The position numbers and the translations under genes were made by a program. This document shows positions 1,890 through 44,267 of a stretch of DNA of 64,000 nt, piece by piece. Every line of letters starts with the position of its first letter. The stretch's first letter is position 1. Origin of the DNA: an uncultured Alphaproteobacteria bacterium (GTDB lineage Bacteria; Pseudomonadota; Alphaproteobacteria; Rs-D84); assembly GCA_944390125.1 (NCBI GenBank), contig CALXOX010000004.1, positions 23,875-87,874 of the forward strand, written 5' to 3'. The notes below the pieces were generated by a model that did not search any database, had not been told where the DNA came from, and saw nothing but the letters and a program-made list of their open reading frames with translations.

Positions 1890-1920
1890 ACTCAACGCCC
1901 CATTTGGGGCGTTGTAAATA

Positions 1921-2343: not shown

Positions 2344-2347
2344 TTTG

Positions 2348-3031: not shown

Positions 3032-3049
3032 ACCAATTCCCTGTTTTTA

Positions 3050-3270: not shown

Positions 3271-3311
3271 AGTTGATTTATTGTAATATGTTATGGATTT
3301 GATGTTATCAT

Positions 3312-6891: not shown

Positions 6892-6918
6892 TATAACAAA
6901 ATATATTTATTTTATGTC

Positions 6919-7680
6919 TTACTCTGAATCTTGTTGTGTAATTTGTTGTAGCATGCGAATCAGCGTTCTAGATGTTATAAAACGTACGCATTTTTCATCG
7001 TCTGAAGCTCGTATTATCATACCAAGAACATCATTGTTATCGTCTAATACTGCCCCGCCACTGTATCCATTGAATGTAGCATGGCAATCATTTTGCTCAA
7101 AACTTAGTAAGCCTTGTTCTAATTCAAGTTCTTCTACATTTTCTGATTTGATTTTTATTAAGCACAAATAACGAGAAGATAATCGGATTATCTTATTTTC
7201 TTTGTCCATCTCTGCATCGGGGTATCCATATATTTTGTATTTGCTCCCTATTCTTAGAGGTTGAGTTGATAAGTTTAATGCCTCTATTCCCGATAATGAA
7301 GTGCCTTTATTATTCTTTAGTCTTTCTTCGTCTATACAAAGGAATAAGATATCAAATATTTTACCAACATTTTTTTCAATTGCTCGATGAACAAAATTTA
7401 TAGGAATTCGCCAGCAGTTAGGCGCTCCAGTAAAACCAAAAGAACAATTTTCTTCTATAACAGATTTTATCATGTCGTGCGATATATTGTTGTCATCAAT
7501 TATTCCGATTTTTGCGTAGCGATGTTTTATAATATTGCGAATGCAATGCCAGGCAGTTACAATAAATCTGGTTCCATTATAATGTAATAAATATGCTGTT
7601 CCACGAGTTTCATGAACCCAGCCATCACCATTTTCTAATGCTATAGGAAAAATAGATTTTAGAAGTATATTATCATTCAT
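6919..7680 (-). CDS. Trypsin-like (S1 family) serine protease
   Basis: 253 aa; His motif TAWHC, Ser motif GYSGGAV (GDSGG-like), cytoplasmic (no signal peptide). Start 20 nt downstream of the DUF488 gene stop on the same strand. Confidence 0.6.
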   Translation of the reverse strand: MNDNILLKSIFPIALENGDGWVHETRGTAYLLHYNGTRFIVTAWHCIRNIIKHRYAKIGIIDDNNISHDMIKSVIEENCSFGFTGAPNCWRIPINFVHRAIEKNVGKIFDILFLCIDEERLKNNKGTSLSGIEALNLSTQPLRIGSKYKIYGYPDAEMDKENKIIRLSSRYLCLIKIKSENVEELELEQGLLSFEQNDCHATFNGYSGGAVLDDNNDVLGMIIRASDDEKCVRFITSRTLIRMLQQITQQDSE

Positions 7681-7700
7681 TTTATTGCTCTATCAAATAA

Positions 7701-8126
7701 TTATAGATGTACAATCTCAATATCCGGGAATTGCTCTGCGATGTATTCAGCGGCGAGGCGGCGGTGGCATTGCATGGCGGACTTTTCCATGCATAACAGG
7801 CAGACGCGGTCAATGTTGTCGGGTGTCAATCCGGCGGTTGGGTGGCGCGTGGCCAGTAATTCACGATACATACGCTCATAATCGGGCCAGGTGATTTTGC
7901 CGTTTTTATATCCAGCCAGTATTTCCGCCGTTGGTGCAAATTCGGGGTGATGTTCATAACGCGTGCCCAGTGCTGCGACCAGTTTTTCGCCACTGTAAAA
8001 TGGCACATAGGTACTGGTGCGCCACAGGCGCACATCCCATACGGTACGGATGCGCACCGCATTCAGAACATCCATAAATGCATCTGGGCTCTTGCCGCTA
8101 AAACCGATTGTAAATATCTTTGCCAT
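7701..8126 (-). CDS. DUF488 family protein (copy 1)
   Basis: 141 aa; N-terminal IFTIGFSGK and C-terminal CLLCxEKSAxQCHRRL motifs characteristic of DUF488; ~75% aa identity with 21886..22311. Confidence 0.6.
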   Translation of the reverse strand: MAKIFTIGFSGKSPDAFMDVLNAVRIRTVWDVRLWRTSTYVPFYSGEKLVAALGTRYEHHPEFAPTAEILAGYKNGKITWPDYERMYRELLATRHPTAGLTPDNIDRVCLLCMEKSAMQCHRRLAAEYIAEQFPDIEIVHL

Positions 8127-8127
8127 A

Positions 8128-8778
8128 TCAATATAAAAATAGTCCGTTTAGCATCAAATAGCAATGATTTTCCTGCATCAGGAACTTTCGTGCCAATCCT
8201 ATACGACAATGGGCATATTGACTAGCCGCAATAGCATTGTTTAGGGTCGCGACATCTTTATCTTTTTCAAATATATCGCGCAAGTATTTGCAACTGACCT
8301 TTAATTCATAGGTTTGGTTTGAAAAATCCGTGATACGGGCACGTAATTTGCCGTCTTCTGTAAAGAATTCAATATTGTGTGCCGGAATCAATATGGCACC
8401 CAACGAAGGGCATTTGGTTTTCTGTGGTACATAGGCGTTTTCCTTGACGTGATGATGAAATATGCCCTGTATATCTTTTGAAACGCTATTGTGCAAAGCA
8501 TTGGCCAGCTCTTTTCCTGGCTCAAATTCTTGCAAAACCTCGATGGAGTCAAAGTCTATATTTACGTCCTCGGTTCGGTGGGGATAGTCACGCGGTTCTT
8601 TGAAATCCTCGTTATCGACGAGTATTTCGCAATATGTGGTCGGAATCTGACTGGCATCCCAGTATCCGCCGTCCAACATCAGGCGTTTCATACGTTTTTC
8701 ATAGGTGTCAAATCCGGCAATACAAAATTTTTCTTTCATACATGTTATGTCAGAGATAATGATATTCGATTTTTTCAT
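8128..8778 (-). CDS. Hypothetical protein (216 aa), partner of DUF488 (copy 1)
   Basis: Stop/start 1-nt gap with DUF488 gene; ~85% identical to 22313..22963; no recognisable domain. Confidence 0.5.
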   Translation of the reverse strand: MKKSNIIISDITCMKEKFCIAGFDTYEKRMKRLMLDGGYWDASQIPTTYCEILVDNEDFKEPRDYPHRTEDVNIDFDSIEVLQEFEPGKELANALHNSVSKDIQGIFHHHVKENAYVPQKTKCPSLGAILIPAHNIEFFTEDGKLRARITDFSNQTYELKVSCKYLRDIFEKDKDVATLNNAIAASQYAHCRIGLARKFLMQENHCYLMLNGLFLY

Positions 8779-9241
8779 GTAATTCCTTTTGGGTAATAAA
8801 AATCCCCACCGAGAACGGCGGGGTAAATAAAAAAAACGGCGATAACATCACCTGCTCAAATCGCTAAGTATTATATCAAAAATGGGCTAAAAAATCAATA
8901 AAAAAGATAATTTGCGAAATAAATTCCCTGTTATTTGTTTAGGGAATGTTTGGCGAGAACTGGGGAATGCACATCCTGCGCGTGGAGCAAAAGTGGTTTT
9001 TGTTCAAAAATGGCGAGAATTTCCCTGTAAATTCCCTGTTGTATGTAATAAACCGTAGAATCTTGCCACACCGCCAGGAATAATCAAAACCCCACAAAAT
9101 CCTTGTGGGGTTTGTTTTTGCCCCACTTTCCGGGACTTTTTTAATCTTGTATTACCACTGTATGTCTTATCATACCTTAAATATCCCATTTTCCGCATCC
9201 TAACATACTTTGGCATTTTTCGGACCTGCACAAGTATAGTA

Positions 9242-10036
9242 TTATGGGTTAATAACTATATGTGTATCTAATATTGATATTATGTCGTCTAAGGTTTTTT
9301 GAGCGGCTGTTCTTAGTTGTTCCGAGCGGACCTGAATTATGTTTTCTATATCTGATTTAGTTTTTGCTATATTTATATACTTACGCATAATGCCCGTTAT
9401 AATCACAAATTCTTTATTGGTGATATTCAGGCTTTCGCATTTAGTTTGAAGTATAATGCTAGCGTTACCGCTGTCTGTAACTCTAATACATTTTTTATAG
9501 TCCATGACAATACAATTGCCGGCTTGTGTTTTTTCGCCACATTCAATAATTACCTCTTTTTCAAATGTTATATTGGTAAACTCCGTACATAATTTCTTAA
9601 ATATAGAAATATATTTTGTTAGTTTTGCATTTTGGGGAAATGCAAACTGTATATCGTTGATATTTTTACCGATTTGTAATAATTTTACATTGACGTCATC
9701 TGCTATGTTTAATCCAGAAATGCTCAAAGCAGATGTAAAATTTGCTAGCAACTCATTTCTCAGATTTAGTCGTAGTGTAAAAATATCAAAGGCGTACTGT
9801 TTTGCTGCAATGTTTTTTTGTGCTTCTAAAATTTTTTCCTGGTTATCAAAAGAACGCTTGGAATTGATTTCTTGATTCTTCATAGAAAGCCATTGTAAGT
9901 AGTATATAAAGGTTGTTAATAAGAGTGTTATTAGTGTAAGCTTACCTTCTAGTGTTTGTATTGGGGCATATATTGCTATATATAAAATCAGTATTATAAA
10001 TATACACGGTATAATGGTTGTGAATCTGTTTTTCAT
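9242..10036 (-). CDS. Hypothetical membrane protein (2 N-terminal TM helices + soluble domain)
   Basis: Start chosen at MKNRFTTIIPCIFIILILYIAIY (two hydrophobic segments); the ORF track extends to 10108. Confidence 0.4.
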   Translation of the reverse strand: MKNRFTTIIPCIFIILILYIAIYAPIQTLEGKLTLITLLLTTFIYYLQWLSMKNQEINSKRSFDNQEKILEAQKNIAAKQYAFDIFTLRLNLRNELLANFTSALSISGLNIADDVNVKLLQIGKNINDIQFAFPQNAKLTKYISIFKKLCTEFTNITFEKEVIIECGEKTQAGNCIVMDYKKCIRVTDSGNASIILQTKCESLNITNKEFVIITGIMRKYINIAKTKSDIENIIQVRSEQLRTAAQKTLDDIISILDTHIVINP

Positions 10037-10091
10037 GACAAAATCTCCTGATGTGTTGTACTTGTAATTATATGAGGATATTTCTTTTTTT

Positions 10092-10619
10092 CTATAACTG
10101 ATTTGCAAAGGCTGTATTAAAAATTTCTGTGATGTTTAATTTACCTTTTCCAGATAAAATAGTGTTTATTTTATTCGGATTCATATAGGCTAAACTCAGA
10201 TAGTTAAATAATGTTCTTGGCGATATGCGTTCTTGCTTGCGTATATTGTCAGGCCCAATACCTTGTTCGTACAGTTCTTTATATCTCCACGCGGTTGCAA
10301 AGGCCTTGACGATAAGGTTGTTGTTTTCCGTAATTGTAAGCAGGCTTGTTTTTTCCTTGCTAAATTTAGTGTTTGCATACCTGCGGAAAACTATTGGCGT
10401 GGTTATTGTGACACTGTATTCATTTGTAATAAATTCCATTGGTAAACTTGATTGATTTACATAGACATCCGTAATAAATGGGCGCACGGAATTTGGCGAT
10501 ATATCTAAATAGATAATCAGTTGCTTGTTTGAGAAAATAGCCTTATCAACTATTGCTTGTATAAAGTCTCGTTTTTGTACGCCCGATAGAGCCGCCCAAT
10601 TTACGTACATACATCGCAC
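10092..10619 (-). CDS. Hypothetical protein (175 aa)
   Basis: ORF only; a ~30-nt segment (10270-10300, encoding ATAWRYKELYE) is repeated next to repeat copy 2 (23230-23260). Confidence 0.35.
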   Translation of the reverse strand: MRCMYVNWAALSGVQKRDFIQAIVDKAIFSNKQLIIYLDISPNSVRPFITDVYVNQSSLPMEFITNEYSVTITTPIVFRRYANTKFSKEKTSLLTITENNNLIVKAFATAWRYKELYEQGIGPDNIRKQERISPRTLFNYLSLAYMNPNKINTILSGKGKLNITEIFNTAFANQL

Positions 10620-10751
10620 ATTTAATTACTGGGATTTTACACATTTTTGTTGTGGTAATTACAGCTTACAAAGTGCAGAAACTCAAGTTATTACTGGTTG
10701 ATATAGGTCAAATTTTTTGTACAATATGTGTTATATAAAACAGGAGTTTCT

Positions 10752-11054
10752 ATGAAGAAAAATATAATAATTTTATTCTTACTTGCGGTTAATTTGATTG
10801 GTTGTGGAGTGTTTGATTCTAGGAAAAGAGAATATATGAATAGACATTCTTATAATTTTGATGTTGGGCATACCATATCAAGAAGTAATAATCCAAATCT
10901 TCCGGGCGATGCGGAAGTTTATGACGCAGAAGATTATCGTGCGGGGGCTATGGAGGTTTGCAACTTAATGAAAGAAACGTATGATAAAGATTTATGCGCG
11001 GAAGTAAATTACTGGGGACTTTGGGGACCCAGAATTAAGCCAATAACAGAGTAA
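10752..11054 (+). CDS. Putative lipoprotein
   Basis: MKKNIIILFLLAVNLIGCG lipobox; RBS aggag upstream; followed by terminator. Confidence 0.5.
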   Translation: MKKNIIILFLLAVNLIGCGVFDSRKREYMNRHSYNFDVGHTISRSNNPNLPGDAEVYDAEDYRAGAMEVCNLMKETYDKDLCAEVNYWGLWGPRIKPITE

Positions 11055-11078
11055 TGATATTATTTACCCGATATTTAT

Positions 11079-11100
11079 GTCGGGTATTTTTATTCTTTTT
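11079..11100 (+). terminator. Rho-independent terminator
   Basis: acccgatatttatgtcgggt hairpin followed by atttttattcttttt. Confidence 0.5.
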
Positions 11101-11628
11101 CTGCAAGCCTTTGCATCAGTGGAAAACTTGATATTATTGAATCAACTTTTTTTATATAAACTTTGTCTGATATTGCTTTCTTTTTATTTAACATAGATAC
11201 GACTTCCAGTGCTTCGTACGGGGCCAAGTGTAAAGTCAGTGTAATTTTTTCATGTTTTGTCCTTTTAGTTTTCGGGTAAAGTCAAATCAGCACTCCCAAT
11301 GCCGGTGTAGGCGAAGCAATAATATTCTATCGCGACAGGGCAGGTAGCCGTTATTACGACGGCTGATACGATGTTCTATTTTATTCAAAATGCGACAAGC
11401 ACAATAATAAAGCATATTGCAGGTAGAAACATTGTTTGGTTTGATATCTTCGTAAGATTTACACTTCATGCGACACCCTTTTGTTCAGTTGTCGCATTTA
11501 CGCTTACCTTTCCAAGAAAGTCAAGATTATAGTAAAATAAAAGGCGTGAAAAAATAGATTGTGTTTTAGTGGTGTCTTGATTTTTAGGGTGTTGCCTGTT
11601 AGAATTATTCCTATCAAAGTAAAAGGCT

Positions 11629-14124
11629 GTGACAATGACATTTGATAAGCTGCGTGATGACAATGAAGCGTACGCACGATTGAAGATAAATCAGAAATTG
11701 CATGATGCGGGTTGGTTTTTGACAGATACCCCAGATCATAAGCGAAACGTGAACGTTGAACAAAAGGTTGATGCGGGGTTTGCTGATTACGAACTGTTGG
11801 ATTCAAATGGTTTTCCTTTGTGTATTATAGAGGCGAAAAAGCCGTCCATAAATCCATTGAGTGCAAAAGAACAGGCGCGTCGTTATGCGGTTGAACATAA
11901 TATAAGATTTGTTGTTTTATCAAATGGTGAAATTTATTATTTGTGGGATATTAAGTCTGGAAACCCTCAAATTATAACACAGATACCAACACAAGAATCT
12001 TTGGAAATGCGCAGTGGTTTTGATCCAAGCACCAAAGATATAATGAAAGAAAATATAATTCCAGAATATGTAGCATTACAGAAGAATCCGCGTTTGTTGG
12101 ACATTCCAGAATATCAGAATCCAGAAACTCGTGGTGCATATTGTTGGAATAATGGGTTGCGCATATTGCGAGATTATCAACTTGGTGCAATACAGGCAGT
12201 GCAAAAAGCTATTGCTAATGGTCAAGACAGGTTCTTGATTGAAATGGCAACAGGACTTGGTAAAACATTGACCGCTGGTGCGATAATTCAAATGCTATTA
12301 CGCACAGGCCATGCACACAGGGTTTTGTTCTTGGTCGATCGTATTGAATTGGAACGCCAAGCGTATAAAAATTTTAATGATTATTTGTGCGATTTTATCA
12401 CAGTTATTTATAAAGAAAAGTCTGAAGAATGGCACAAGGCGGATATTGTTGTTTCAACTATTCAGACATTGATGGCAGGTGATAAATATAAAAAGTTTTC
12501 ACCAACTGATTTTGATTTTATTATATCCGATGAAGCACATCGTTCAATTGGCGGCAATAGCCGTGCTGTATTTGAATATTTTATTGGGTATAAATTAGGC
12601 TTGACTGCGACACCGCGTGATTACATCAAAAATGTGGATGTTGATAAAATAAAGCTCAATGACCCAAAAGCTCTTGAGCGTAGATTGTTACTGGATACAT
12701 ATGAAACATTTGGTTGTAAAAGCGGAACGCCAACATATAAATATTCAATGGTTGACGGTATAAAAAATGGTTATTTGGTTGCTCCTATGGCCATTGATGC
12801 GCGTACAGATATAACCACACAAATGTTATCTGAAAAGGGCTATCATGCTATTGGCGTTGATGAAAATGGCGAAGATGCCGAAGCCGATGTTGTTGTAAAG
12901 GATTTTGAAAAACGCTTTTTTAATGAAAATATAAATGCTGTATTTTGCAAAGCATTCTTAGAAAATGCAGAACGTGATCCAATAAGTGGCGAAATTGGAA
13001 AAACGTTGGTGTTTTGTGTCAGTCAATCGCACGCTGCCAAGATAACACAAATTTTAAATGAGTTTGCTATGCAGGCGTTCCCTGGAAAATATAACAGTGA
13101 TTTTGCGGTTCAGGTTACCAGCAATGTTCAAAACGCCCAAGATATGACGAACCAGTTTATGACAGATAGTAATAATCTGGGTGGAAAATCTACATTTTTA
13201 GAGGGCTATGATACGTCAAAAACTCGTGTATGTGTAACTGTTGGAATGATGACAACTGGTTATGACTGCAGTGATTTATTAAATATAGTATTTATGCGCC
13301 CGGTATTTTCACCAACTGATTTTGTACAAATGAAAGGACGTGGAACTAGAAAATATACATTCAAGTATATTGATGCTGATAAAAACGAAATAAAAAAGGA
13401 AAAAGAACACTTTAAACTTTTTGATTTCTTTGGAAACTGTGAATATTTTGAAGAAAAATTTGATTATGGTCAGCAGTTAAAGCTACCACAATTATCCAAG
13501 GGTGTTACTGCTGGAACTTCTGGGCAGGTGCGTACCTTTACAACATTGACATCAGAAGAAATTACAAAGCTTGTTCAAATGGAAACACTTGCTATACCTG
13601 ATAATGGCATGCGTATTGATCGTGAATTCTGGGGCAATTTCCAAAAAACAATTAGCGCCGATGCAGACATAAAAAATGCGGTCGACAATTCCGATTGGGA
13701 TTATGCGGTAGCCCTGGTTAAAGAAAAATACGAAAACAAGCCAGAATTATATCCTAACCTGGAACGGATTAAAAAGGCGACAAAATTGGACCGCCGTTTA
13801 TCTTGGCGCGAAATATTGGAACACATATTCGGTTTACTGCCCCGGTTTAAGACACGCGATGAAATGTTAGAAGACGAATGCGATAAATACATATCCATCG
13901 TTAAACCTGCACCTGAAATAGTTCCCTCTATTAAAAATTTTATAAAATTGTATGTTACAGATAACACATTTCGTGATATAATAGAAAAACAGGAATACCC
14001 AAGGCTTAACGCTGAAATTCCGGGTTTTAGTATGCAGGATTTAAAATTAATGGGCAAAGATATTCGCGAAAATTTACCTGAATACATCAAAGAAAATATC
14101 GTTTTAAATAAATATATGGGGTAA
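11629..14124 (+). CDS. hsdR: Type I restriction enzyme R subunit-like: N-terminal PD-(D/E)xK nuclease + SF2 helicase
   Basis: N-terminal DYELLD...CIIEAKK (D-E-x-K), Walker A EMATGLGKT, DEAH box SDEAHRS, motif VI QMKGRGTR; 831 aa; the M-S gene starts 5 nt after its stop. Confidence 0.75.
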   Translation: MTMTFDKLRDDNEAYARLKINQKLHDAGWFLTDTPDHKRNVNVEQKVDAGFADYELLDSNGFPLCIIEAKKPSINPLSAKEQARRYAVEHNIRFVVLSNGEIYYLWDIKSGNPQIITQIPTQESLEMRSGFDPSTKDIMKENIIPEYVALQKNPRLLDIPEYQNPETRGAYCWNNGLRILRDYQLGAIQAVQKAIANGQDRFLIEMATGLGKTLTAGAIIQMLLRTGHAHRVLFLVDRIELERQAYKNFNDYLCDFITVIYKEKSEEWHKADIVVSTIQTLMAGDKYKKFSPTDFDFIISDEAHRSIGGNSRAVFEYFIGYKLGLTATPRDYIKNVDVDKIKLNDPKALERRLLLDTYETFGCKSGTPTYKYSMVDGIKNGYLVAPMAIDARTDITTQMLSEKGYHAIGVDENGEDAEADVVVKDFEKRFFNENINAVFCKAFLENAERDPISGEIGKTLVFCVSQSHAAKITQILNEFAMQAFPGKYNSDFAVQVTSNVQNAQDMTNQFMTDSNNLGGKSTFLEGYDTSKTRVCVTVGMMTTGYDCSDLLNIVFMRPVFSPTDFVQMKGRGTRKYTFKYIDADKNEIKKEKEHFKLFDFFGNCEYFEEKFDYGQQLKLPQLSKGVTAGTSGQVRTFTTLTSEEITKLVQMETLAIPDNGMRIDREFWGNFQKTISADADIKNAVDNSDWDYAVALVKEKYENKPELYPNLERIKKATKLDRRLSWREILEHIFGLLPRFKTRDEMLEDECDKYISIVKPAPEIVPSIKNFIKLYVTDNTFRDIIEKQEYPRLNAEIPGFSMQDLKLMGKDIRENLPEYIKENIVLNKYMG

Positions 14125-14128
14125 TAAG

Positions 14129-16540: not shown

Positions 16541-16542
16541 CG

Positions 16543-17235
16543 ATGATAGTTGAGTATTCTAATGATAATCCTGTCTATTTATTGATGGATTTATTGCCCC
16601 CTCTTGACGATACTATTGACTATTTATATAAATACCAAGAAGATCTTGCTTATCATTACGAGCGTGGTTTTTATAATCTTGCGTTATTTTCATATCATCA
16701 ATTATACATGGCAATATTTCATATGTATGTATTAAAGTATCATAGAATGGATGTTGATGTTGCTAATTCTTGCAGAAGCGGGCGTCCCCCTATAACAGAT
16801 TTAACACCCGCTATTTATTCCGATGTAGGGGATGAAAAATCTCGTGTTAGGCTATTTGGTCGTAGAATTTCAGAAACAGTGAAAAATGATCATATGGATT
16901 TGGTAAAACAAAGGGATAGAATTGCCCATTTTACTGGTGACGTTGTAACAAAAGAACAAATTGATAAATATATAAAAAAATCTATAAATGTATTAAAGGG
17001 AATCCAACCTGTTGCATTTTATGAATTGCTTTTACATCCATCAGATAGATTTACAAAACATGCAGACGAAATACGTGCAGAAATGGATCAAACAGAAAAG
17101 TTTTATAAAATTTCGGGGTTAATCCGAGATTTTTATTTATCAAAAACAGATATTGATTTTTTAAAAGCTAAACCAGATTTCGTATTTTTTGATGAATATA
17201 TTTCAGAAAATGGCTATGAGCCAATTGAAGGGTAA
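16543..17235 (+). CDS. R-M operon-associated hypothetical protein, possible HEPN (DUF4145-like) domain
   Basis: Starts 3 nt after the M-S stop; contains R-x4-H motif (RDRIAH) compatible with the HEPN fold that is often linked to Type I R-M loci; otherwise unrecognised. Confidence 0.35.
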   Translation: MIVEYSNDNPVYLLMDLLPPLDDTIDYLYKYQEDLAYHYERGFYNLALFSYHQLYMAIFHMYVLKYHRMDVDVANSCRSGRPPITDLTPAIYSDVGDEKSRVRLFGRRISETVKNDHMDLVKQRDRIAHFTGDVVTKEQIDKYIKKSINVLKGIQPVAFYELLLHPSDRFTKHADEIRAEMDQTEKFYKISGLIRDFYLSKTDIDFLKAKPDFVFFDEYISENGYEPIEG

Positions 17236-17285
17236 ACTACCATAAATTTTGGTTTTTGTTACTCATGGTTAAGAAAAAACTAATC

Positions 17286-17313
17286 TTGAAGCTTATGCTA
17301 GTATGGTTATAAT
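17286..17313 (+). promoter_or_regulatory. Putative sigma70 promoter for gajAB (TTGAAG-16-TATAAT)
   Basis: Hexamers read directly; RBS agaggaag precedes ATG at 17361. Confidence 0.4.
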
Positions 17314-17360
17314 ACTGTGTATAATGTGTTATAAAAAATTAATTAGAGGAAGATTAGATT

Positions 17361-19304
17361 ATGCATATTTCTACGATAAAAATTAAAAACTTTCGATTGT
17401 TAAAGGATTTTTCCATAAATCTTGAAAAAAATCTTTCTATAATTATTGGGAAAAATAATACAGGTAAAACGTCTTTTGTTCTGGCACTAGAAAAGTTTTT
17501 AAAAAATGGGAAAATAGATTTCTATGATATAAATACAGATTTTAAAAATTATTTAGCTACATTATTAAAAGATATGCTTTTGTTGAAGGAAGAGAATTTT
17601 AATGCCATTGGGGAACTTGGTATAATCCTGGAAATGGTGATAGAATATGATGATAAAGTAGATAGTTTAGAAAATTTATCAAAATTTATTACTGATTTGG
17701 AGCCCGACAATAAAAAAGTATTTTTTAAATTTAAGTTTTTGTTAAATTATGACAATTATAAAAATATGCACAAAAAATTACAATCGGTTACAGAAAATGA
17801 AAAAAAAGAAAGTTATATAAAAAAACACCTTGCTGAAAATCTGATATGGAAGGCGTATTCATATTATGAAGAAGAACGTTTTGAAAATATACATGAAATT
17901 AAGCCACATGATGCAGATTTAAATAAACTTTTAAATATTGAAATAATAAGGGCTCCAAGAGATTTTGTAAAGAATAACTCTAAAACCCTTTCTGTTCAAT
18001 CAAGTGATTACTTTAGAGCTCGGTCAAAAAATGATTCAAAAGTCTTGGACCGGTTTTCAGAAGCCTTAGAAAAAATAGATAAAGATTTAAAAACAGAATA
18101 CGACGTCATTTATAAAGATGTTTTTGATAGCATAAAAAAATATATTGATGATGATTCTATAAATCCGGAGGTAATACCTGAACTAAATGCCGAAAAAATC
18201 ATTGGGGATAACACAATAGTAAAATATCAAAACGATTTACCGGAGTATAATAATGGGCTAGGATATTTAAACCTGATTTCTATATTGCTTGAAATACACT
18301 TATATGTAGAAAAATTAAGCGGTAAGGCTTCAAAACCGGACATATTTTTGTTGTTTATTGAAGAGCCTGAGGCTCATACGCACCCTCAGATGCAATATAT
18401 TTTTATTAAAAACATCAAAGAATTGTTAAAAAAACAATCTTTTCAAAGTATTATATCTTCACATTCTTCGCATATCGTTTCTAATTCAGATTTTGAAGAT
18501 ATTAAATATTTTTATTTTAACCATAAATTAAAAACGGTAGACTCAAAAAATATTTCTGAGCTTATGTCAAAAATTGGGAAAGATCATTTTGCTTTTTTAA
18601 AGAAATATCTTACTTTGAATTCAGCAGAATTGTTTTTTGCAAACAAAGCAATTTTTATCGAAGGTGATAGCGAAAGGATACTTTTACCAAGTTTTATTAA
18701 AAAAATTAGCGCTGAACCAGATTTTTCTAATGCAATATATCAAAATATAAGCATTATTCATGTTGGTGGTGCTTATGCGCATATATTCAAACCATTAATG
18801 AATTTTTTTGATATAAAATGTCTTATAATTACAGATATAGATTATAAATTGACAGCAATTAAAAGCAAAGATGCTACCGGGAAAACAAAAATTACTGGTT
18901 ATAAATCTAATTTGTCAAAAGGCATTACAAATCAAACTATCAAAAAGCTAATCCGTAAAAATTCATCAACTGCTGAAGATCTTATAGAAAAGGCAGGAGA
19001 AGAGATTCAAAAAAACAAAATATATATAGCTTTCCAAAAAGATGGGACAAGGTCTTTCGAAGATTCTTTTTTTGAAAAAAATAGAGAGTTTATATTAGAC
19101 AATAAAAACGGTTTTAAATCTTTAAAAAAACGGTCTAAAATTGATACATATAAGGATAAATTTGGTTTCTCAGATAATTTTATTTCGAAAAAAACCGATT
19201 TTGCTACAGATATTTTATATCATTCAAATTCAGATTTAACTAATTGGGATATTCCTGATTATATTTCGAACGGATTAAAGTGGTTGTTAAAGGACGATAA
19301 ATAA
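17361..19304 (+). CDS. gajA: Gabija GajA: OLD-family ATPase + TOPRIM endonuclease
   Basis: Walker A IIGKNNTGKTS near N-terminus, Walker B/Q-loop region LLFIEEPEAHTHPQMQ, TOPRIM motif AIFIEGDSERILLP; 647 aa; directly followed by a UvrD-like helicase gene. Confidence 0.8.
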   Translation: MHISTIKIKNFRLLKDFSINLEKNLSIIIGKNNTGKTSFVLALEKFLKNGKIDFYDINTDFKNYLATLLKDMLLLKEENFNAIGELGIILEMVIEYDDKVDSLENLSKFITDLEPDNKKVFFKFKFLLNYDNYKNMHKKLQSVTENEKKESYIKKHLAENLIWKAYSYYEEERFENIHEIKPHDADLNKLLNIEIIRAPRDFVKNNSKTLSVQSSDYFRARSKNDSKVLDRFSEALEKIDKDLKTEYDVIYKDVFDSIKKYIDDDSINPEVIPELNAEKIIGDNTIVKYQNDLPEYNNGLGYLNLISILLEIHLYVEKLSGKASKPDIFLLFIEEPEAHTHPQMQYIFIKNIKELLKKQSFQSIISSHSSHIVSNSDFEDIKYFYFNHKLKTVDSKNISELMSKIGKDHFAFLKKYLTLNSAELFFANKAIFIEGDSERILLPSFIKKISAEPDFSNAIYQNISIIHVGGAYAHIFKPLMNFFDIKCLIITDIDYKLTAIKSKDATGKTKITGYKSNLSKGITNQTIKKLIRKNSSTAEDLIEKAGEEIQKNKIYIAFQKDGTRSFEDSFFEKNREFILDNKNGFKSLKKRSKIDTYKDKFGFSDNFISKKTDFATDILYHSNSDLTNWDIPDYISNGLKWLLKDDK

Positions 19305-19305
19305 T

Positions 19306-20871
19306 ATGCCAACAATTGTACAACAAATAGAGTCTGCCCTAGAAAATAACAAAAGTTTTGTGCTATCTGGCGGTGCTGGTAGTGGAAAAACGCATTCTCT
19401 AAAAGAAGTTATAAATTCAATATACGGCAGTAACCCCAATGCTAAAATTGCTTGTATCACTTTTACAGAGGTGGCTTCTAATGAAATCGCTGAACGATGC
19501 AAAAATACTGATAGGAATCTTTGGGTTTCGACTATTCATAAATTCTTATGGGAAAACATTAAAAATTACAAACCCCAGTTAAAAAAAGAACTTATAGAAC
19601 TTATAAAAGCAGATAAAATATCGTACCACGATGACAACGACATAGAAGAAGTATTAAAAGATAAAGTCGTTGATTACGGAATAAGCAGAAAAATATCAGA
19701 AGGTTTAATTTGGCATGATGATTTATTGCTTATAGCAAAAGAAATGTTTGCTAAATATAAACTATTAAACAAAATTTTTTCTGATAAGTATGACTACGTT
19801 TTTATTGACGAGTATCAAGATACAAGCAAAGATGTTATCGAAATATTTATCAACATGATAAAATCTAATATAAGGACAAAATTTGGCTTTTTTGGTGATT
19901 CTATGCAGGCTATTTATGAAACAGGTATAGGTAGCCTGACAGAATACGTACAAGATAACACGATTACAGAGATAAAGAAAGCGGATAATTATAGATGTTC
20001 TGTAGCAGTAATAGAACTTTGCAATAAAATAAGGAACGATGGGATTATACAAAAGCCGTCAAACATAGAAAACGGCGAGATAAAAAACAAGCCAGGTTGT
20101 GCAGTTTTTATTTATAGTGATAATGACTTAAATGCGTTTGAGCAATCTGATTTATACAACGAAATTTTTGAAAATGTATCGCCAGATAAGGAGTTGTACT
20201 TAACATATAAATTAATTTCACAGAAACATAATTTTATTGATTTGTTAAATGCTTATATAGAAGCATATGGTAGTCATGGTAGAGAAAAACTGATGGGAGA
20301 AAATAAGGACGATATAGCAAAGTTCCTAAATCGTACGGCAGAATTAATATATTTATATAAATCTGGTAGATATAATGAATTTATACAGAAAACTTCATTT
20401 GACTTAAAATCGCATTCTTTCAAATTAGAGTTACGAAACGCCATTGAAACCGCCCTTTCCGAAAAAGATATCGAATGGACTGTTAATTTTATGGCAGAAA
20501 AGAAACTTTTGATTCCTAATGATAATCTTAAAGAAAATATCGCACTTTGGAACAAAGTAAAAACAATCAACTTTGAACAAGCTATGAACGTATATAATTT
20601 AGAAACTGATCATACCCCATATTCTACACAACATGGGGTAAAAGGTGCTGAATTTAATAATGTACTTGTAGTTTTAGATAACGGGAAGTGGTTTAAATAT
20701 AATTTTAATAAACTTTTTTCTCCTGAACCGGCTTTATTAACATTAAAGCTTTTCTATGTGTGTATATCAAGAGCAAAGAATAACTTAGCTGTATTTATGC
20801 AAAAACCCGACAAACAGGTTTTATTAAAGGCTATAGAATGGTTCGGAGAAGAAAATGTTAAAAAAGTTTAA
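19306..20871 (+). CDS. gajB: Gabija GajB: UvrD/Rep-like SF1 helicase
   Basis: Walker A SGGAGSGKTHS, motif II FIDEYQDTS; starts 2 nt after the gajA stop; 521 aa. Confidence 0.75.
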   Translation: MPTIVQQIESALENNKSFVLSGGAGSGKTHSLKEVINSIYGSNPNAKIACITFTEVASNEIAERCKNTDRNLWVSTIHKFLWENIKNYKPQLKKELIELIKADKISYHDDNDIEEVLKDKVVDYGISRKISEGLIWHDDLLLIAKEMFAKYKLLNKIFSDKYDYVFIDEYQDTSKDVIEIFINMIKSNIRTKFGFFGDSMQAIYETGIGSLTEYVQDNTITEIKKADNYRCSVAVIELCNKIRNDGIIQKPSNIENGEIKNKPGCAVFIYSDNDLNAFEQSDLYNEIFENVSPDKELYLTYKLISQKHNFIDLLNAYIEAYGSHGREKLMGENKDDIAKFLNRTAELIYLYKSGRYNEFIQKTSFDLKSHSFKLELRNAIETALSEKDIEWTVNFMAEKKLLIPNDNLKENIALWNKVKTINFEQAMNVYNLETDHTPYSTQHGVKGAEFNNVLVVLDNGKWFKYNFNKLFSPEPALLTLKLFYVCISRAKNNLAVFMQKPDKQVLLKAIEWFGEENVKKV

Positions 20872-21023
20872 TGATTTTTTAAACGAGTTCGGGTGAAAAT
20901 GATGTTTTTTAAGATTAAATGTAATTTTTTAGGTTAATGTGGAAATCAGGTATAAAACTATTACTCATAATTATTGCAGAGCAACGATTGCTGGACTAAG
21001 ATATAAACCAATACACAAGTGGG

Positions 21024-21869
21024 GTGGTTATGTTCAAAATATCAAAATCTGATTATGTATTGGGGGTTAAGTGCCCAAATGCAATATGGTTTAAAAAACT
21101 GCGCAAGGATTTGCAGCCAGAATTCAACACTGCGTTATTAGAGCAGGGTAATGCCGTTGGTGCATTGGCTCGTTCCAAGTACCCAGATGGCGTTCATATA
21201 ACCGATTTGCCTTGGGAACGTTCCGCGGTTCTTAATACCCAGCGCGCCATAGATAACAATGCCCCATACATATACGAAGCAACAATGGCAACAAGCACAG
21301 GTGAATATTGCGCCGTAGATATATTAAAGAACAATAATGACGGTACCTGGGATATCATAGAGGTAAAATCAACCACCAAACCCCACGATTATCACTATAT
21401 AGACATATCGTTTCAAAAGTACGTATTCAGCAAGTGTGGTCTGCAAATTCGTGATTGTTGGATTTTGACTTTGAATCCTGAATATGTGCGTCATGGCGAA
21501 TTAGATGCACAAGAACTGTTTATCGCCCACGACGCATCAGCAGAAATGCAATCTATGGAAACGGTCGCATCAGAAGTTGAACGTATAAGAAACATCTTAA
21601 ACGGGCCAGAATTAGGTATTGCTATATCCAAGGCCAAGTGCAATAAGTTTTACGAGTGCAGTTATAAAAATCATTGTTGGCGTAATGTTCCGCCTTATTC
21701 TGTGTTTGATGCCTTCAAAGTGGCTTTGGCAGATGAAATATATGCAGAATACGGGCCAGATTTGGCAAATGTTCCGGCTGACCAGTATGTTCGACAAATG
21801 CGCAGCGGGGATATAGAGGCTTTTTTAAGCAATCAAGAAATCTGCAACCCAGATATCTTGCGTCAATAA
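21024..21869 (+). CDS. Stand-alone Cas4/RecB-family PD-(D/E)xK nuclease-like protein with Cys cluster
   Basis: N-terminal Cys (GVKCPNAIW), motif II CAVDIL, motif III DIIEVKST (E-x-K), QxxxY (FQKYVF), C-terminal C-x5-C-x5-C (CNKFYECSYKNHC); no cas1/cas2 or CRISPR nearby. Confidence 0.5.
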   Translation: MVMFKISKSDYVLGVKCPNAIWFKKLRKDLQPEFNTALLEQGNAVGALARSKYPDGVHITDLPWERSAVLNTQRAIDNNAPYIYEATMATSTGEYCAVDILKNNNDGTWDIIEVKSTTKPHDYHYIDISFQKYVFSKCGLQIRDCWILTLNPEYVRHGELDAQELFIAHDASAEMQSMETVASEVERIRNILNGPELGIAISKAKCNKFYECSYKNHCWRNVPPYSVFDAFKVALADEIYAEYGPDLANVPADQYVRQMRSGDIEAFLSNQEICNPDILRQ

Positions 21870-21885
21870 TAACAAAATGGTCAAT

Positions 21886-22311
21886 TTATAAATGCACAAT
21901 CTCAGTGTCGGGGATTTGCTCTGCAATGTATTCAGCAGCGAGGCGGCGATGGCATTGTAGGGCGGATTTTTCTGTGCATAACAAGCAGATGCGGTAAATG
22001 TCGGCAGGGGCGAGTCCCTCGATCGGGTGGCGCGCAGCCAGCAATTCGCGATACAGCTTTTCATAATCGGCCCAAGTGATGCGGCCTTCTTTGTATCCAG
22101 CCAATATTTCGGTCGTTGGGGCAAATTCGGGGTGATATTCGTACCGCGCGCCCAATACCGTGGCCAGATTTTTGCCACTGTAAAATGGAACGTACGCGCT
22201 GGCGCGCCAAAGCCGAATATCCCAAACACAGTTTATCTTGGCTGCATTCAGGATATCCAAAAAATCATCGGGCTTTTTGCCACTAAAACCAATTGTAAAA
22301 ATCTTTGTCAT
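21886..22311 (-). CDS. DUF488 family protein (copy 2)
   Basis: 141 aa; same motifs as 7701..8126 (CLLCTEKSALQCHRRL). Confidence 0.6.
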   Translation of the reverse strand: MTKIFTIGFSGKKPDDFLDILNAAKINCVWDIRLWRASAYVPFYSGKNLATVLGARYEYHPEFAPTTEILAGYKEGRITWADYEKLYRELLAARHPIEGLAPADIYRICLLCTEKSALQCHRRLAAEYIAEQIPDTEIVHL

Positions 22312-22312
22312 A

Positions 22313-22963
22313 TCAGTATAAAAATAACCCGTTTAACATTAAATAGCAATGATTTTCCTGTATCAGGAATTTGCGTGCCAACCCTATACGACAATGAGCA
22401 TACTGACTGGCGGCAATGGCATTATTCAAATTTTCGACATCTTTACCTTTTTCAAATATATCGCGCAAGTATTTGCAACTGACTTTTAATTCATAGGTTT
22501 GTTTGGAATAGTCCGTGATACGTGCGCGCAGTTTGCCGTCTTCCGTAAAGAATTCAATATTGTGTGCCGGAATCAATACGGCACCCAACGAAGGACATTT
22601 GGTTTTCTGTGGCACATAAGCATTTTCTTTGACATGATGATGGAATATACTTTGTATGTCTTTTAATATGCTACTTTTTAGTGCGTTTGCCAACTCTTTT
22701 CCTGGTTCAAATTCTTGCAAAATCTCTATAGATTTAATATCTATGTTGACATCTTCGGTTCGGTGTGGGTAATCTCGTGGTTCTTTAAATTCTTCATTGT
22801 CGACCAATATTTCACAATATCTGGTCGGAATCTGATTAGCGTTCCAATAACCAGCGTTTATCATCAGACGTTTCATGCGTTTTTCATATGTATCAAAACC
22901 TGCAATACAGAATTTTTCTTTCATACATGTTATGTCAGAAATAATTATATTTGATTTTTTCAT
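22313..22963 (-). CDS. Hypothetical protein (216 aa), partner of DUF488 (copy 2)
   Basis: Start trimmed to MKKSNIIIS by analogy with copy 1 (the ORF track extends to 23011); ~85% aa identity to 8128..8778. Confidence 0.5.
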   Translation of the reverse strand: MKKSNIIISDITCMKEKFCIAGFDTYEKRMKRLMINAGYWNANQIPTRYCEILVDNEEFKEPRDYPHRTEDVNIDIKSIEILQEFEPGKELANALKSSILKDIQSIFHHHVKENAYVPQKTKCPSLGAVLIPAHNIEFFTEDGKLRARITDYSKQTYELKVSCKYLRDIFEKGKDVENLNNAIAASQYAHCRIGLARKFLIQENHCYLMLNGLFLY

Positions 22964-23360
22964 GTGCTTCCTTTGGGGTAACAAAAATACCCACCAAGAA
23001 CGGCGGGGCAAATAAAAAACGGCGATATAAATCGCCCGCTTAACTCAATGAGATATTATACCAAAATTGGGTTAAAAAATCAATAAAAAAAGATTGTGTT
23101 CTAAATAAATACCCTGTATTTATCGTATCTGATACCGTCAAATGTTACAACCCCGCCAGGAATAAATAAAACCCCACAAAATCCTTGTGGAGTTTATTTT
23201 TTGCCCAGTCAAAACCATGTTCATACATATCTTTATATTTCCACGCAGTTGCAAAGTTTTTTCATCTTTATACGGGGATACATCAATAAAACGTGTTGCA
23301 GCCGATTTCGTTTGCATATTAGATTTGGTTATATATAATTTAAACTCTAAAGGAGAGATT

Positions 23361-23699
23361 ATGTTCAATATTTCTAAATTTTCTTTGTGTCTTTTGCCAT
23401 TCACTCTGGGGGCTTGCTGCCAAAGTAATGTTGAAATAGTGCGCGGAAAATTGACAATGGGGCACGAGGTTAGGGCTTTTGTTCCTGATGGCCAAAATAA
23501 AGAATTTTGGATAATAGATAAGTCTGGTAAACTTTACCCAGAATACCAGAAAATAGCGCCCGTTGAGAAAGGTGCATATACTCCTGTTCGTGCAGAATTA
23601 AAAGTAAAAGAATTACCAAAAATGCAAGACGGTTTTGGCGCAGAATATGATGGAACATATGATGTCGTTGAAATCATTTCTATAACCCCAATAAAATGA
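23361..23699 (+). CDS. Putative lipoprotein
   Basis: Start at MFNISKFSLCLLPFTLGAC (RBS aaaggagag); the ORF-track N-terminal extension overlaps the repeat and is unlikely to be coding. Confidence 0.45.
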   Translation: MFNISKFSLCLLPFTLGACCQSNVEIVRGKLTMGHEVRAFVPDGQNKEFWIIDKSGKLYPEYQKIAPVEKGAYTPVRAELKVKELPKMQDGFGAEYDGTYDVVEIISITPIK

Positions 23700-23709
23700 G
23701 GTATATACC

Positions 23710-24276: not shown

Positions 24277-24306
24277 GTAATACGGACAAATGGTAGTGAA
24301 GTAAAT

Positions 24307-27154: not shown

Positions 27155-27179
27155 GATGACGCTATCTCCTTTTATTATA

Positions 27180-28310: not shown

Positions 28311-28422
28311 GATTAAACACCCAAGCTATTTACAAGAACTGGCTTTCACAAATTTTGCAGATATTAGCATAAAAGTCAATTTAAATAAAAGCAAGCTCGT
28401 ATAATTCTTTCTTTTCATATAT

Positions 28423-44225: not shown

Positions 44226-44267
44226 GAAATAATTATAATATTTATGGTGGCAATTGCAAGTTTTTAA

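Follow-up and report, generated by a model that had tools for sequence, protein, structure and literature searches.

A 64,000-nucleotide stretch of DNA from an uncultured gut alphaproteobacterium (the window) probably carries two or more related integrative elements arranged in tandem, among them E1 and E2, which lie head-to-tail at ...CCGCCA|GGAAT... junctions in a serine-tRNA-type site. The best reading of two direct repeats in the window is that they represent the conserved modules at the ends of E1 and E2. This reading is based on the exactness of the junctions, the multiple contexts in which the modules are found, their association with tRNA-Ser genes, and the existence of closer alleles of each copy elsewhere. 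The comparator loci (L numbers) were all metagenome contigs or MAGs.

Gapped self-alignment of the 64-kb window gave a single direct repeat outside a giant repeat protein; the one further self-match lies within that protein. The repeat copies span 7701-9125 and 21886-23207 and consist of a main block (7701-8936 and 21886-23121; 81.5% identity over 1242 aligned nt with 7 gap openings) and a second block (9052-9125 and 23134-23207; 83.8% identity). The spacer between the blocks is 116 nt in copy 1 versus 13 nt in copy 2, leaving approximately 103 extra nt in copy 1. A preliminary description of this DNA was right about the two repeats, but its limits of 7685-9140 and 21875-23215 were slightly too wide and its estimate of 85-90% identity was too high. 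As it had stated, homology starts at the DUF488 stop codon in both copies (7701 and 21886). The repeat period of 14,082 equals the spacing of repeat family D3 and the distance between two junction motifs, CCGCCAGGAAT, that begin at 9071 and 23153. The conserved hairpin that it reported, AAAACCCCACAAAATCCTTGTGGGGTTT, occurs at two sites only in the window, 9086-9113 (hairpin 1) and 23168-23195 (hairpin 2, 1 mismatch), against a chance expectation of none.

Each repeat copy is a self-contained operon on the minus strand encoding a two-OB-fold DuOB-like protein and a DUF488 protein. This matches the common two-gene cassette described previously, in which the 216-aa product had no assignment. In copy 1 the DUF488 gene (141 aa) is at 7701-8126 and the DuOB-like gene (216 aa) at 8128-8778; the corresponding genes of copy 2 are at 21886-22311 and 22313-22963, the latter with its ATG at 22963. 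The 216-aa protein matches Pfam DuOB with E=1.6e-5 and 25.5 bits, slightly below the cut-off of 27. The 141-aa protein matches Pfam DUF488 (E=4.6e-18) and is predicted to have a phosphatase-like fold. Between the copies, the DuOB genes are 84.2% identical in nucleotides and 89.9% in amino acids and the DUF488 genes 77.2% and 73.9%, with dN/dS of 0.04 for DuOB (dS 1.26) and 0.20 for DUF488 and dS across both genes of 0.83-1.26. Both cassettes are under purifying selection, which is very strong for DuOB.

The DUF488 protein also matches the PADLOC model PDC-M45C (E=1.9e-34) and in this respect resembles PDC-M45, a DUF488-containing defence candidate of PADLOC. The cassette differs from this candidate in that the partner DuOB protein matches no PADLOC model and no PDC-M45A partner is evident nearby, the sole PDC-M45B match (E=1.7e-11) being the DUF488 protein itself. 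We know of no experimental defence phenotype for PDC-M45. Our best guess is that the cassette may be a tightly attenuated module acting on nucleic-acid ends, in which an OB protein binding ssDNA or RNA would guide a cysteine-phosphatase-like enzyme. Such a module would serve defence or the element's own life cycle.

Each copy is nearer to alleles in other species (L008, L020 and L029 for copy 1, 90-93% in nucleotides; L006-L016 and L030 for copy 2, 87-91%) than to the other copy (about 81%). Together with the dS of 0.83-1.26, this argues against a recent duplication. Tandem duplication of one cassette in situ, after which the copies diverged and cargo was inserted between them, would explain their direct orientation, identical gene order, and common boundaries, but is highly improbable given these values and given that the leaders of the two copies are of different length classes, each of which is common to other species. 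An assembly artefact, in which the versions of a single locus from two strains were collapsed or joined into a chimera, is barely credible. Several metagenome contigs do end in or beside the repeat (L080-L084, L087), but copies that differ by about 18% are easily resolved by assemblers, and two assemblies from different sample sets contain both copies and the 13 kb between them at 99-100% identity. BRZ_MG contig NODE_731 aligns in one piece to 7365-24280 of the window (99.0%), and scaffold_1665 of ONAT22-1 SAMEA6814614 spans 7239-24268. Since each of these independent assemblies carries both copies on a single contig, the arrangement is not a mis-assembly, in agreement with the earlier claim.

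Promoter and terminator scans and an alignment of 26 leader sequences were used to describe the leaders, which we regard as attachment arms; both cassettes have a predicted promoter and a tandem pair of terminator hairpins there. The leader of cassette 1 (8779-9076, minus strand) contains a ribosome-binding site (AAGGAA), two tandem terminator-like hairpins (8804-8823 and 8838-8852), a predicted promoter (TTGATT-N17-TATAAT, 8870-8898), a TTCCCT-N13-AGGGAA palindrome whose AGGGAA arm is ACAGGGAA at 8924-8931, and CAGGGAA repeats at 9021-9039. Dual leader hairpins with unrelated stems are kept in distant relatives and were obtained in none of 200 shuffles. The leader of cassette 2 (22964-23158, minus strand) belongs to a short class of 198 nt, common to L004, L019, L038, and L050, and is without the approximately 103-nt stretch bearing the first CAGGGAA repeats. 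At the outer end of each leader, on the plus strand, is a pseudo-tRNA-Ser 3' end with a T-loop-like GAATC and then ...CCGCCA; these are ACCGTAGAATCTTGCCACACCGCCA at 9052-9076 in E1 and ACCGTCAAATGTTACAACCCCGCCA at 23134-23158 in cassette 2. The E1/E2 junction is directly after base 9076.

The right-hand approximately 9 kb of E1 occupies positions 1-9076 (minus strand). This region is matched at 100% identity by two conspecific contigs, L055 and L040, both of which diverge exactly after 9076. The left part of E1, off the window, carries a 529-aa large serine recombinase with Resolvase and Recombinase domains (Pfam) and, in some strains, tRNA-Ser(tga). The order in L055 is tRNA-Ser(tga) ...CCGCCA|GGAATATCAGA, LMBR1-like, large serine recombinase, DUF2924, ParB-MTase, DUF5681, TerL, and cassette. 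An intact tRNA-Ser(tga), ...CCCATCCGCCA|GGAATATCAGA, bounds the E1 block on the left in L055, L056, L058, and L060, and in L053, L054, and L057 the GGAATATCAGA end of E1 abuts the pseudo-tRNA end of another element. This outer end is known from sister strains, the far left of the array lying beyond the window. A packaging-like module at 92-1889 (plus strand), comprised of DUF5681 (92-460; Pfam E=9e-24) and a large terminase (453-1889; Terminase_6C, E=8e-10), also adjoins cassettes in L007, L012, and the IMG/VR contig L085. The cargo slot of E1 (3312-7680), which is filled by known defence systems in other elements, encodes a 245-aa protein (3312-4049, plus strand) and a 966-aa protein (3991-6891, plus strand), neither of which gave a match in Pfam and PADLOC searches, and a trypsin-like protease (6919-7680, minus strand; Trypsin_2, with PADLOC LmuA and RT-protease matches). 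E1 is more intact than E2.

E2 extends over 14,082 bp (9077-23158) between the two CCGCCA junctions, as defined by the junction motif and the repeat period, and is present in independent contigs. At its recombinase-side end, hairpin 1 forms a predicted bidirectional terminator (scan stems 9087-9113); in L029 and L034 the 3' flank of tRNA-Ser(gga), with its terminator, looks similar to this hairpin plus GGAATAATCAAAA. Hairpin 1 is followed by a predicted 288-aa membrane protein from the ORF list (9242-10108, minus strand) with no significant family match in Pfam and PADLOC searches. The next ORF (10092-10619, minus strand), earlier listed as 175 aa of unknown identity, is the C-terminal third (approximately 170 residues) of a large serine recombinase paralogous to that of E1: tblastn with the 533-aa recombinase of L008 matched residues 364-533 only, at 10095-10604 with 97% identity. 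Full-length relatives contain the Pfam Resolvase and Recombinase domains; since the catalytic part has been lost here, E2 is unable to move on its own. A 108-aa lipoprotein-like ORF (10728-11054, plus strand; ORF list) gave no match in family searches.

The remaining cargo of E2 is on the plus strand. A Type I-like restriction-modification (R-M) system (11629-17235) consists of an HsdR-like protein (11629-14124; Pfam ResIII and HSDR_N, PADLOC REase_I E=1.3e-58), a fused HsdM-HsdS (14129-16540; Pfam N6_Mtase and Methylase_S, PADLOC MTase_I E=4.7e-100), and a 230-aa protein with no assigned identity (16543-17235). Gabija (17361-20871), with GajA at 17361-19304 (PADLOC E=1.4e-171) and GajB at 19306-20871 (E=2e-151), has a GC content of 26-30% versus 36-42% in the flanks. 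A 281-aa Cas4-like PD-(D/E)xK nuclease follows (21024-21869; Pfam Cas_Cas4 E=1.8e-5, PADLOC Cas4 E=1.3e-6), and a homologue 67% identical to it lies near the cassette in L022. Beyond E2, conspecific contigs share a fixed right flank (23159-23207) of GGAATAAATAAAA and hairpin 2, which is probably the native 3' flank of the target tRNA-Ser. From the junctions we infer that E2 is one complete but decayed element with its own cassette, adjacent to another member of its family.

In other species the slot directly downstream of DUF488 contains Gabija, PD-Lambda-4-like, PD-Lambda-2-like, C5-methyltransferase, or IetS genes. The comparison of related genomes thus bears out the earlier proposal of a defence-gene hotspot with variable cargo. 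Tandem accretion of islands linked to tRNA genes is an ordinary route by which bacteria gather anti-phage genes.

Among related strains and species, homology breaks exactly after the CCA of the pseudo-tRNA end (9076 and 23158). Conspecific contigs have at least three different right-hand partners after 9076, and the block 100% identical to window 1-9076, cassette 1 included, occurs in at least four contexts within one species. In L076, L077, L079, L080, and L082, also conspecific, the match to the window begins at 23151-23153, at CCGCCA, and the DNA to the left of it belongs to different elements. The preliminary description had taken the cassettes to be paralogous anchor genes that delimit a hotspot and had suggested that recombination between the repeats could delete or exchange the cargo. 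Taken as a model of fixed chromosomal anchors around a single hotspot, in which homologous recombination between the two repeats or inside them adds, removes, or exchanges cargo, this would account for the strong conservation of the cassette (DuOB is 89-93% identical in amino acids across species) and for the variable DNA found on both of its sides everywhere. Some homologous exchange within the cassette does occur, as seen from a breakpoint inside the leader in L043 and an identical cassette joined to different downstream cargo in L047, and to this extent the claim of recombination stands. However, most breakpoints fall right after CCA, outside the coding repeat, and most cargo turnover looks site-specific at the junctions. 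Fixed anchors are quite unlikely, as the cassettes are at different tRNA-Ser genes across species and in the several contexts just described within one, most relatives have one cassette per locus and not a bracketing pair, and repeats with 81.5% identity and dS near 1 are a poor substrate for homologous recombination.

Across species the cassette adjoins four tRNA-Ser genes (gga, tga, cga, and gct). At 10 or more loci, representing four anticodons, intact tRNA-Ser genes are found 40-1700 nt beyond DUF488, on the opposite strand; at other loci an intact tRNA-Ser has its 3' end at the pseudo-tRNA position. The tRNA-Ser(gga) terminator of L033 has exactly the same sequence as the hairpin preceding the leaders of L007 and L014. 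A 61-nt direct repeat from the 3' half of tRNA-Ser(gct) lies on either side of the cassette in L018, and the tRNA-Ser(gct) of the window (57113-57201) is an empty site matching L018. Full or partial recombinase copies adjoin cassettes in L004, L008, L014, L020, L025, L029, L041, and L047.

In L018, L019, L033, and L034 the cassette is alone beside tRNA-Ser with little else, and such cassettes also fit a chromosomal gene pair between two hotspots. The cassette would then be a resident operon between a decayed upstream and a real downstream tRNA-Ser, with unrelated islands inserting on either side. Elements that have the same attachment arm and no cassette (L076, L077, L079) and the dN/dS of DuOB are in keeping with this. 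We nevertheless find it unlikely because the CCGCCA direct repeat of L055 surrounds both the cassette and the recombinase block, the 20 nt separating the protease gene from DUF488 hold no tRNA fragment, the cassette 1 block shifts between contexts as one 100% identical unit, and genomes carry two or three diverged copies. The L018 cassette within a tRNA(gct) duplication, for which the window has the empty site, also argues against it.

Under the tandem-element reading, an element would run rightwards from the terminator hairpin through a membrane-protein gene, a large serine recombinase gene with DUF2924, an optional ParB-methylase/DUF5681/terminase module, and a variable cargo slot to the conserved DuOB-DUF488 operon, which would read back to the cargo and have a leader ending in a degenerate tRNA-Ser 3' end. 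The serine recombinase would catalyse integration at, or a few bases from, the CCA end of a tRNA-Ser gene. The pseudo-tRNA end of the element would recreate a similar target that may be used as a secondary attachment site, letting further elements stack. Several observations count against this reading. The sequence common to the attachment ends is short (CCGCCA, often then GGAAT), and site geometry is not uniform, since a more distant group (L021-L026, L035) has leaders without the TGGCGG core and, in L024 and L025, a recombinase that directly adjoins the cassette. A search for an excision product, a circular junction, and an exact empty site of E2 found none. Serine recombinases are not known to rely on arm-type repeats like the CAGGGAA motifs, so a different enzyme may be at work.

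Classical tRNA- and tmRNA-linked islands target tRNA genes, accrete in tandem, and usually encode a P4-type tyrosine integrase. The elements described here resemble them in several respects: one end has an intact tRNA and the opposite end a duplicate of a tRNA 3' segment (61 nt in L018), strains differ in whether an island is present and the breaks fall at the tRNA 3' end, several islands are stacked at a site, and the cargo is made up of defence genes. They differ in having a large serine recombinase and DUF2924 in place of the tyrosine integrase, a common core of approximately 6-11 nt at the very CCA end, use of all four tRNA-Ser isoacceptors seen, and a decayed pseudo-tRNA end in each element that seems to be the next docking site. 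SCC and SCCmec of staphylococci are islands with Ccr serine recombinases that stack at the 3' end of rlmH. They likewise form tandem arrays at the 3' end of a conserved gene, with short direct repeats separating the units, R-M systems among the cargo, and some units that have lost the recombinase and could be moved in trans only. By contrast, the elements here target a tRNA-Ser end in place of a protein-coding gene, belong to an uncultured alphaproteobacterium of the gut, and have a conserved DuOB-DUF488 operon at the junction; Pfam domains gave no homology to SCC backbone genes.

P4/P2 hotspots and PICI-like elements are phage satellites or prophage-borne defence hotspots. Like them, the elements have a fixed backbone with a defined variable slot for different anti-phage systems in relatives, E1 has terminase-type genes with no capsid or portal genes in the approximately 24 kb seen, and one relative is in IMG/VR; unlike in those systems, neither a helper phage nor a replication module nor genes for capsid redirection were identified here. 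Hotspots anchored by core genes lie between conserved chromosomal markers in E. coli or Pseudomonas and share with this locus conserved flanks and defence cargo that is highly variable between strains. The "anchors" here differ from those markers in being mobile, multi-copy, and att-associated, rather than single-copy core genes at a fixed position.

The window contains a single long direct repeat, made up of two copies of a two-gene cassette at 7701-9125 (copy 1) and 21886-23207 (copy 2). Using gapped self-comparison we aligned a main block, 7701-8936 with 21886-23121, at 81.5% identity over 1242 aligned nt, and a second block of 74 nt, 9052-9125 with 23134-23207, at 83.8%; the gap between the blocks is 116 nt in copy 1 versus 13 nt in copy 2. 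Ungapped comparison gave the same repeat families, the coding blocks starting 14,185 nt apart and the hairpin blocks 14,082 nt apart. The preliminary description of this repeat was right in substance, including the start of homology at both DUF488 stop codons, and its identity of 85-90% was too high. The hairpin motif occurs exactly twice in the 64 kb, where no copies are expected by chance; with just two copies in the window, a dispersed REP-like repeat was rejected. Each cassette encodes a 216-aa protein with a near-threshold match to Pfam DuOB (PF22557) and a 141-aa DUF488 protein that matches DUF488-N3a and PADLOC PDC-M45C (E=1.9e-34). The full PADLOC PDC-M45 candidate system is absent: the same DUF488 protein has a weaker M45B match, and DuOB and the neighboring proteins have none. 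PDB sequence searches with both cassette proteins found no relatives, and we found no published literature on this cassette or these islands.

In the reading we favor, copy 1 belongs to a left element (E1) that enters the window from its left edge and ends at 9076, and copy 2 to a second element (E2, 9077-23158) whose length of 14,082 bp is the period of the hairpin-block repeat. Between the cassette copies E2 encodes a 288-aa membrane protein, a 175-aa ORF, a small lipoprotein, an HsdR-like protein, a fused HsdM-HsdS, a 230-aa unknown protein, GajA and GajB, and a Cas4-like nuclease. A Gabija system consists of neighboring genes for GajA (ATPase and TOPRIM/OLD-like) and GajB (UvrD-like helicase), and both were found, GajA at 17361-19304 matching over its full length (PADLOC E=1.4e-171) and GajB adjacent to it at 19306-20871 (E=2e-151). 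The Type I restriction-modification gene set is predicted to be complete, with HSDR_N, ResIII and Helicase_C domains in the HsdR-like protein and N6_Mtase plus two Methylase_S domains in an 803-aa M-S fusion, a predicted Type I component. The GC content around Gabija (17001-21000) is 26-30% versus 36-42% in the rest of the element, suggesting that this cargo is a more recent or foreign arrival. The 175-aa ORF corresponds to the C-terminal ~170 residues of a large serine recombinase and is 97% identical to residues 364-533 of a full 533-aa gene in a related locus (L008). Only residues ~364-533 thus remain in E2, which lacks the catalytic part and also the terminase module. A complete recombinase of 529 aa with Resolvase and Recombinase Pfam domains is found for E1 outside the window, in conspecific contigs L053-L060. 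A 75-aa ORF at 9004-9231 (- strand) straddles the E1/E2 junction (9076/9077) and is therefore probably not a real gene; in sister contigs, gene callers give it a length of 60-70 aa.

A scan of one genome per species yielded 39 loci, nearly all from gut Alphaproteobacteria labelled Candidatus Enterousia. The cassette is typically present once per 20-kb locus, with DuOB 89-93% identical within the main group. At all 39 loci nucleotide homology to the window ends at the DUF488 stop codon; at the opposite end of the cassette its limit is near window 8936-9096, or 23121 in the case of copy 2. The neighbors of the cassette nearly all differ between loci, and the commonest other gene cluster occurs in only 11. 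In more distant Alphaproteobacteria the pair is kept beside P4-type tyrosine integrases and defence-like genes. The nearest alleles of copy 1 are in L008, L020 and L029 (90-93% nt) and those of copy 2 in L016, L030 and L006-L015 (87-91%), so each copy is closer to other species than to its partner. DuOB differs between the copies with a dS of 1.26 and a dN/dS of 0.04, and DUF488 with a dS of 0.83 and a dN/dS of 0.20. These values and the closer alleles in other species rule out that the second cassette arose by recent local duplication, and the dN/dS values indicate that both copies are maintained as functional. Mis-assembly, which the preliminary description had also argued against, is excluded by the same divergence and by two independent contigs that span the whole arrangement.

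The leader upstream of the cassette genes links these elements to tRNA-Ser. Read in the direction of the cassette, all main-group leaders start TGGCGG(N)G...ATTYCTACGGT; ahead of them lie a T-rich spacer and a terminator hairpin that varies in sequence between loci. The start, TGGCGGAG, is the reverse complement of a tRNA-Ser 3' end (...CTCCGCCA). In two loci (L029, L034) an intact tRNA-Ser(gga) ends in the identical hairpin-spacer-TGGCGG arrangement, and the hairpin preceding the leaders of L007 and L014 is identical to the tRNA-Ser(gga) terminator of L033. Using ARAGORN, we found an intact opposite-strand tRNA-Ser (anticodon gga, tga, cga or gct) 40-1700 nt beyond DUF488 in L011, L017, L018, L019, L027, L028, L031, L033, L034 and L039. 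The cassette of L018 lies between 61-nt direct repeats of the 3' half of tRNA-Ser(gct), the partial copy being followed by the native flank. This flank directly follows tRNA-Ser(gct) (57113-57201) in the window, which is therefore the empty site for the L018 insertion. Three successive sites consisting of a terminator and TGGCGGAG surround the cassette of L019. The window itself has only CCGCCA and a T-loop-like GAATC at the right spacing, a putative remnant of such a tRNA 3'-segment repeat.

Conspecific contigs, obtained by exact-protein look-ups, place the element boundaries at these CCA ends. L055 and L040 match window 1-9076 with 100% identity and part from it directly past the CCA, and the identity of L041 and L054 continues to 9082; at least three different sequences follow the 9076 CCA among strains. 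In L055, L056, L058 and L060 the E1 block starts at an intact tRNA-Ser(tga), whose ...CCCATCCGCCA runs directly into GGAATATCAGA and the hairpin. This tRNA at the unit end was seen for E1 in conspecific contigs, the left end of the window's own array lying outside the window. From tRNA-Ser(tga), E1 encodes an LMBR1-like protein, the 529-aa Resolvase and Recombinase protein, a 259-aa protein, DUF2924, a ParB-methylase, DUF5681 and a terminase, followed by the cargo and the cassette. In L053, L054 and L057 what adjoins the GGAATATCAGA end is a different pseudo-tRNA end that resembles a leader, ...TTCATACCCCGCCA, of a further element that has its own terminase.

To the right of copy 2, breaks in several conspecific contigs fall at 23153-23158. 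Five conspecific contigs match the window from 23151-23153, at CCGCCA; on their left is a different arm in which the CAGGGAA repeats recur, and DuOB-DUF488 is absent from its vicinity. In L076, L077, L079, L080 and L082 this different pseudo-tRNA arm (...GTAAAAGATTCCTTGCACCGCCA) lies just left of the sequence matching window 23153. The occurrence of the CAGGGAA arm without a nearby cassette indicates that it is an attachment arm common to a wider set of islands. The 3' flank of tRNA-Ser(cga) has at least four versions between strains that differ from right behind the CCA. At 52387-53643, 3' of this tRNA, the window has a GT92/GT2 glycosyltransferase, and sister strains have 64-, 112-, 123- or 288-aa genes. 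The 288-aa membrane protein gene of E2 has no nucleotide similarity to the tRNA-Ser(cga) site of L064. The islands are thus present or absent between strains, with breaks at the attachment site.

The preliminary description had proposed a defence island bracketed by paralogous anchor genes, with cargo that recombination between the repeats could delete or exchange. Such a model accounts for the pattern of conserved and variable segments and for a few internal breakpoints (L043, L047). Core anchor genes would be single-copy and fixed in position; the cassette is multi-copy, adjoins four different tRNA-Ser genes across species and occupies several contexts within this species. The anchor model fails on this mobility, on the tRNA duplications and on the CCA-exact breaks. 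For stand-alone cassettes, a resident operon between two hotspots is a possible reading that fits L055 and L018 poorly.

We favor a tandem array in which E1 would end at 9076 and E2 would span 9077-23158, followed by a fixed flank comprising hairpin 2, genes for a 112-aa UCP028175-like and a 188-aa protein, a glycosyltransferase cluster that varies between strains, and a YbaK-like gene. E2 is laid out as E1 is; from the recombinase-side end both have a hairpin, membrane protein, recombinase, cargo and cassette. Recombinase genes or fragments also lie beside cassettes and are oriented to the junction in L004, L008, L014, L020, L025, L029, L041 and L047. On this reading, the serine recombinase would carry out integration and the pseudo-tRNA end may act as a new docking site, which would be the reason why elements stack. 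If the pseudo-tRNA end is indeed a renewable dock, tandem growth of islands would be explained without homologous recombination. The predicted E2 circle junction (...GTTACAACCCCGCCA joined to GGAATAATCAAAACCCCAC...) and the predicted junction of a chromosome lacking E2 (...CTTGCCACACCGCCA joined to GGAATAAATAAAACCCCAC...) had no match in JGI metagenome contigs, and the comparison loci contain just the two existing junction types. The nearest known systems are tandemly accreting tRNA-linked islands, SCC-type serine-recombinase stacks and satellite or prophage defence hotspots. The present elements differ from these in recombinase type, in using any tRNA-Ser at its extreme CCA end, in the pseudo-tRNA end on each unit and in the conserved, apparently attenuated DuOB-DUF488 operon.

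Leader alignment and a pattern scan show that the junction is followed first by the TGGCGG core, then by a pair of CAGGGAA repeats and a TTCCCT-N13-AGGGAA palindrome. Next come a good promoter of the sigma-70 type (TG-extended TTGATT-N17-TATAAT), two successive hairpins each with a T-run behind it, an AAGGAA ribosome-binding site and ATG. The leader of copy 2 is of a short class that lacks the first CAGGGAA repeats. The tandem terminator-like hairpins, at 8804-8852 (- strand) and also upstream of 22963, lie between promoter and ribosome-binding site. RNAalifold gave no consensus for 21 leaders because the distant ones are out of structural register, and a terminator scan of each sequence with shuffles was used in its place. 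Of the 21 leaders, 15 have two terminator-like hairpins in the 105 nt before the ATG, among them distant relatives with wholly different stems (GGCAC/GTGCC, GCGACC/GGTCGC, GACCACG/CGTGGTC); none of 200 shuffles per sequence had two. This recurrence with unrelated stems points to cassette genes that are attenuated and conditionally expressed, and suggests that the dual hairpins are an attenuation or antitermination switch. An antisense tRNA-like RNA in the 300-nt leader was rejected because the alignment reveals a promoter, repeats and terminators; ARAGORN and Rfam found no such RNA, Rfam giving just sub-threshold terminator-like matches.

The position directly past the DUF488 stop codon is a slot that holds different genes in different elements. 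These are Cas4-like, Gabija and Type I restriction-modification genes in E2, Gabija of another subtype in L004, PD-Lambda-4-like in L001 (the same cluster occurs in L006, L007 and L012), PD-Lambda-2-like in L002 and L009, a C5-methyltransferase with a partner gene in L010 and L085, IetS in L005, and an unannotated trio of a protease, a 966-aa and a 245-aa protein in E1. A pooled scan of 123 neighboring proteins also gave model matches to AriA, AbiLi, Old, PD-T4-6 and PDC-S01. In the E1 trio (3312-7680) the 245-aa and 966-aa proteins have no family matches and the trypsin-like protease has weak similarity to LmuA and RT-protease. Since the same slot holds known defence systems in sister elements, the trio is a candidate new defence system. 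An E1-like element is present in L085, an IMG/VR contig classed as viral (IMGVR_UViG_3300029906_000277), with the cassette, C5-methyltransferase, terminase, DUF5681 and ParB-methylase. The 14 kb available for it has no gene for a capsid or portal protein, a hint that the element may live in the manner of a satellite.

It is already well known that integrative elements at tRNA hotspots carry defence cargo, and in principle this case is unsurprising. These small-genome gut bacteria (Ca. Enterousia) appear to gather and swap anti-phage systems via islands stacked at tRNA-Ser ends, and in this unstudied lineage the slot behind the conserved operon is a practical guide to new defence genes such as the E1 trio. 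The DuOB-DUF488 pair is conserved, under purifying selection and apparently attenuator-controlled. As a working hypothesis, it would combine an OB-fold protein that binds nucleic acid with a phosphatase-like enzyme acting on DNA or RNA ends, and it is a candidate for a defence, counter-defence or element-maintenance role. We consider it rather unlikely that the pair is both a new nucleic-acid-end module (a ssDNA/RNA binder and a cysteine-phosphatase-like enzyme silenced by tandem attenuators) and the signature immunity or maintenance operon of a family of serine-recombinase elements that dock at the tRNA-Ser CCA, renew their own landing site and form self-extending defence arrays.

Elsewhere in the window, 43905-44263 (- strand) contains a permuted two-piece alphaproteobacterial tmRNA gene (Rfam alpha_tmRNA, 154.9 bits) that ARAGORN did not report. 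A 2316-aa ORF at 31071-38021 (- strand) has a higher GC content of about 45-47% and an internal ~590-nt tandem repeat (34396-35045 versus 34987-35636, 71% identity); the version in sister strains is 2300 aa long and gives a faint Flg_new match only. Between the 188-aa and YbaK-like genes (24280-28447) the window has a glycosyltransferase/epimerase cluster, and sister strains have another set in the same place, consisting of a 744-aa pyruvyl-transferase-like protein, GT1 and GT2. This variation looks like a surface-polysaccharide switch beside the island array.
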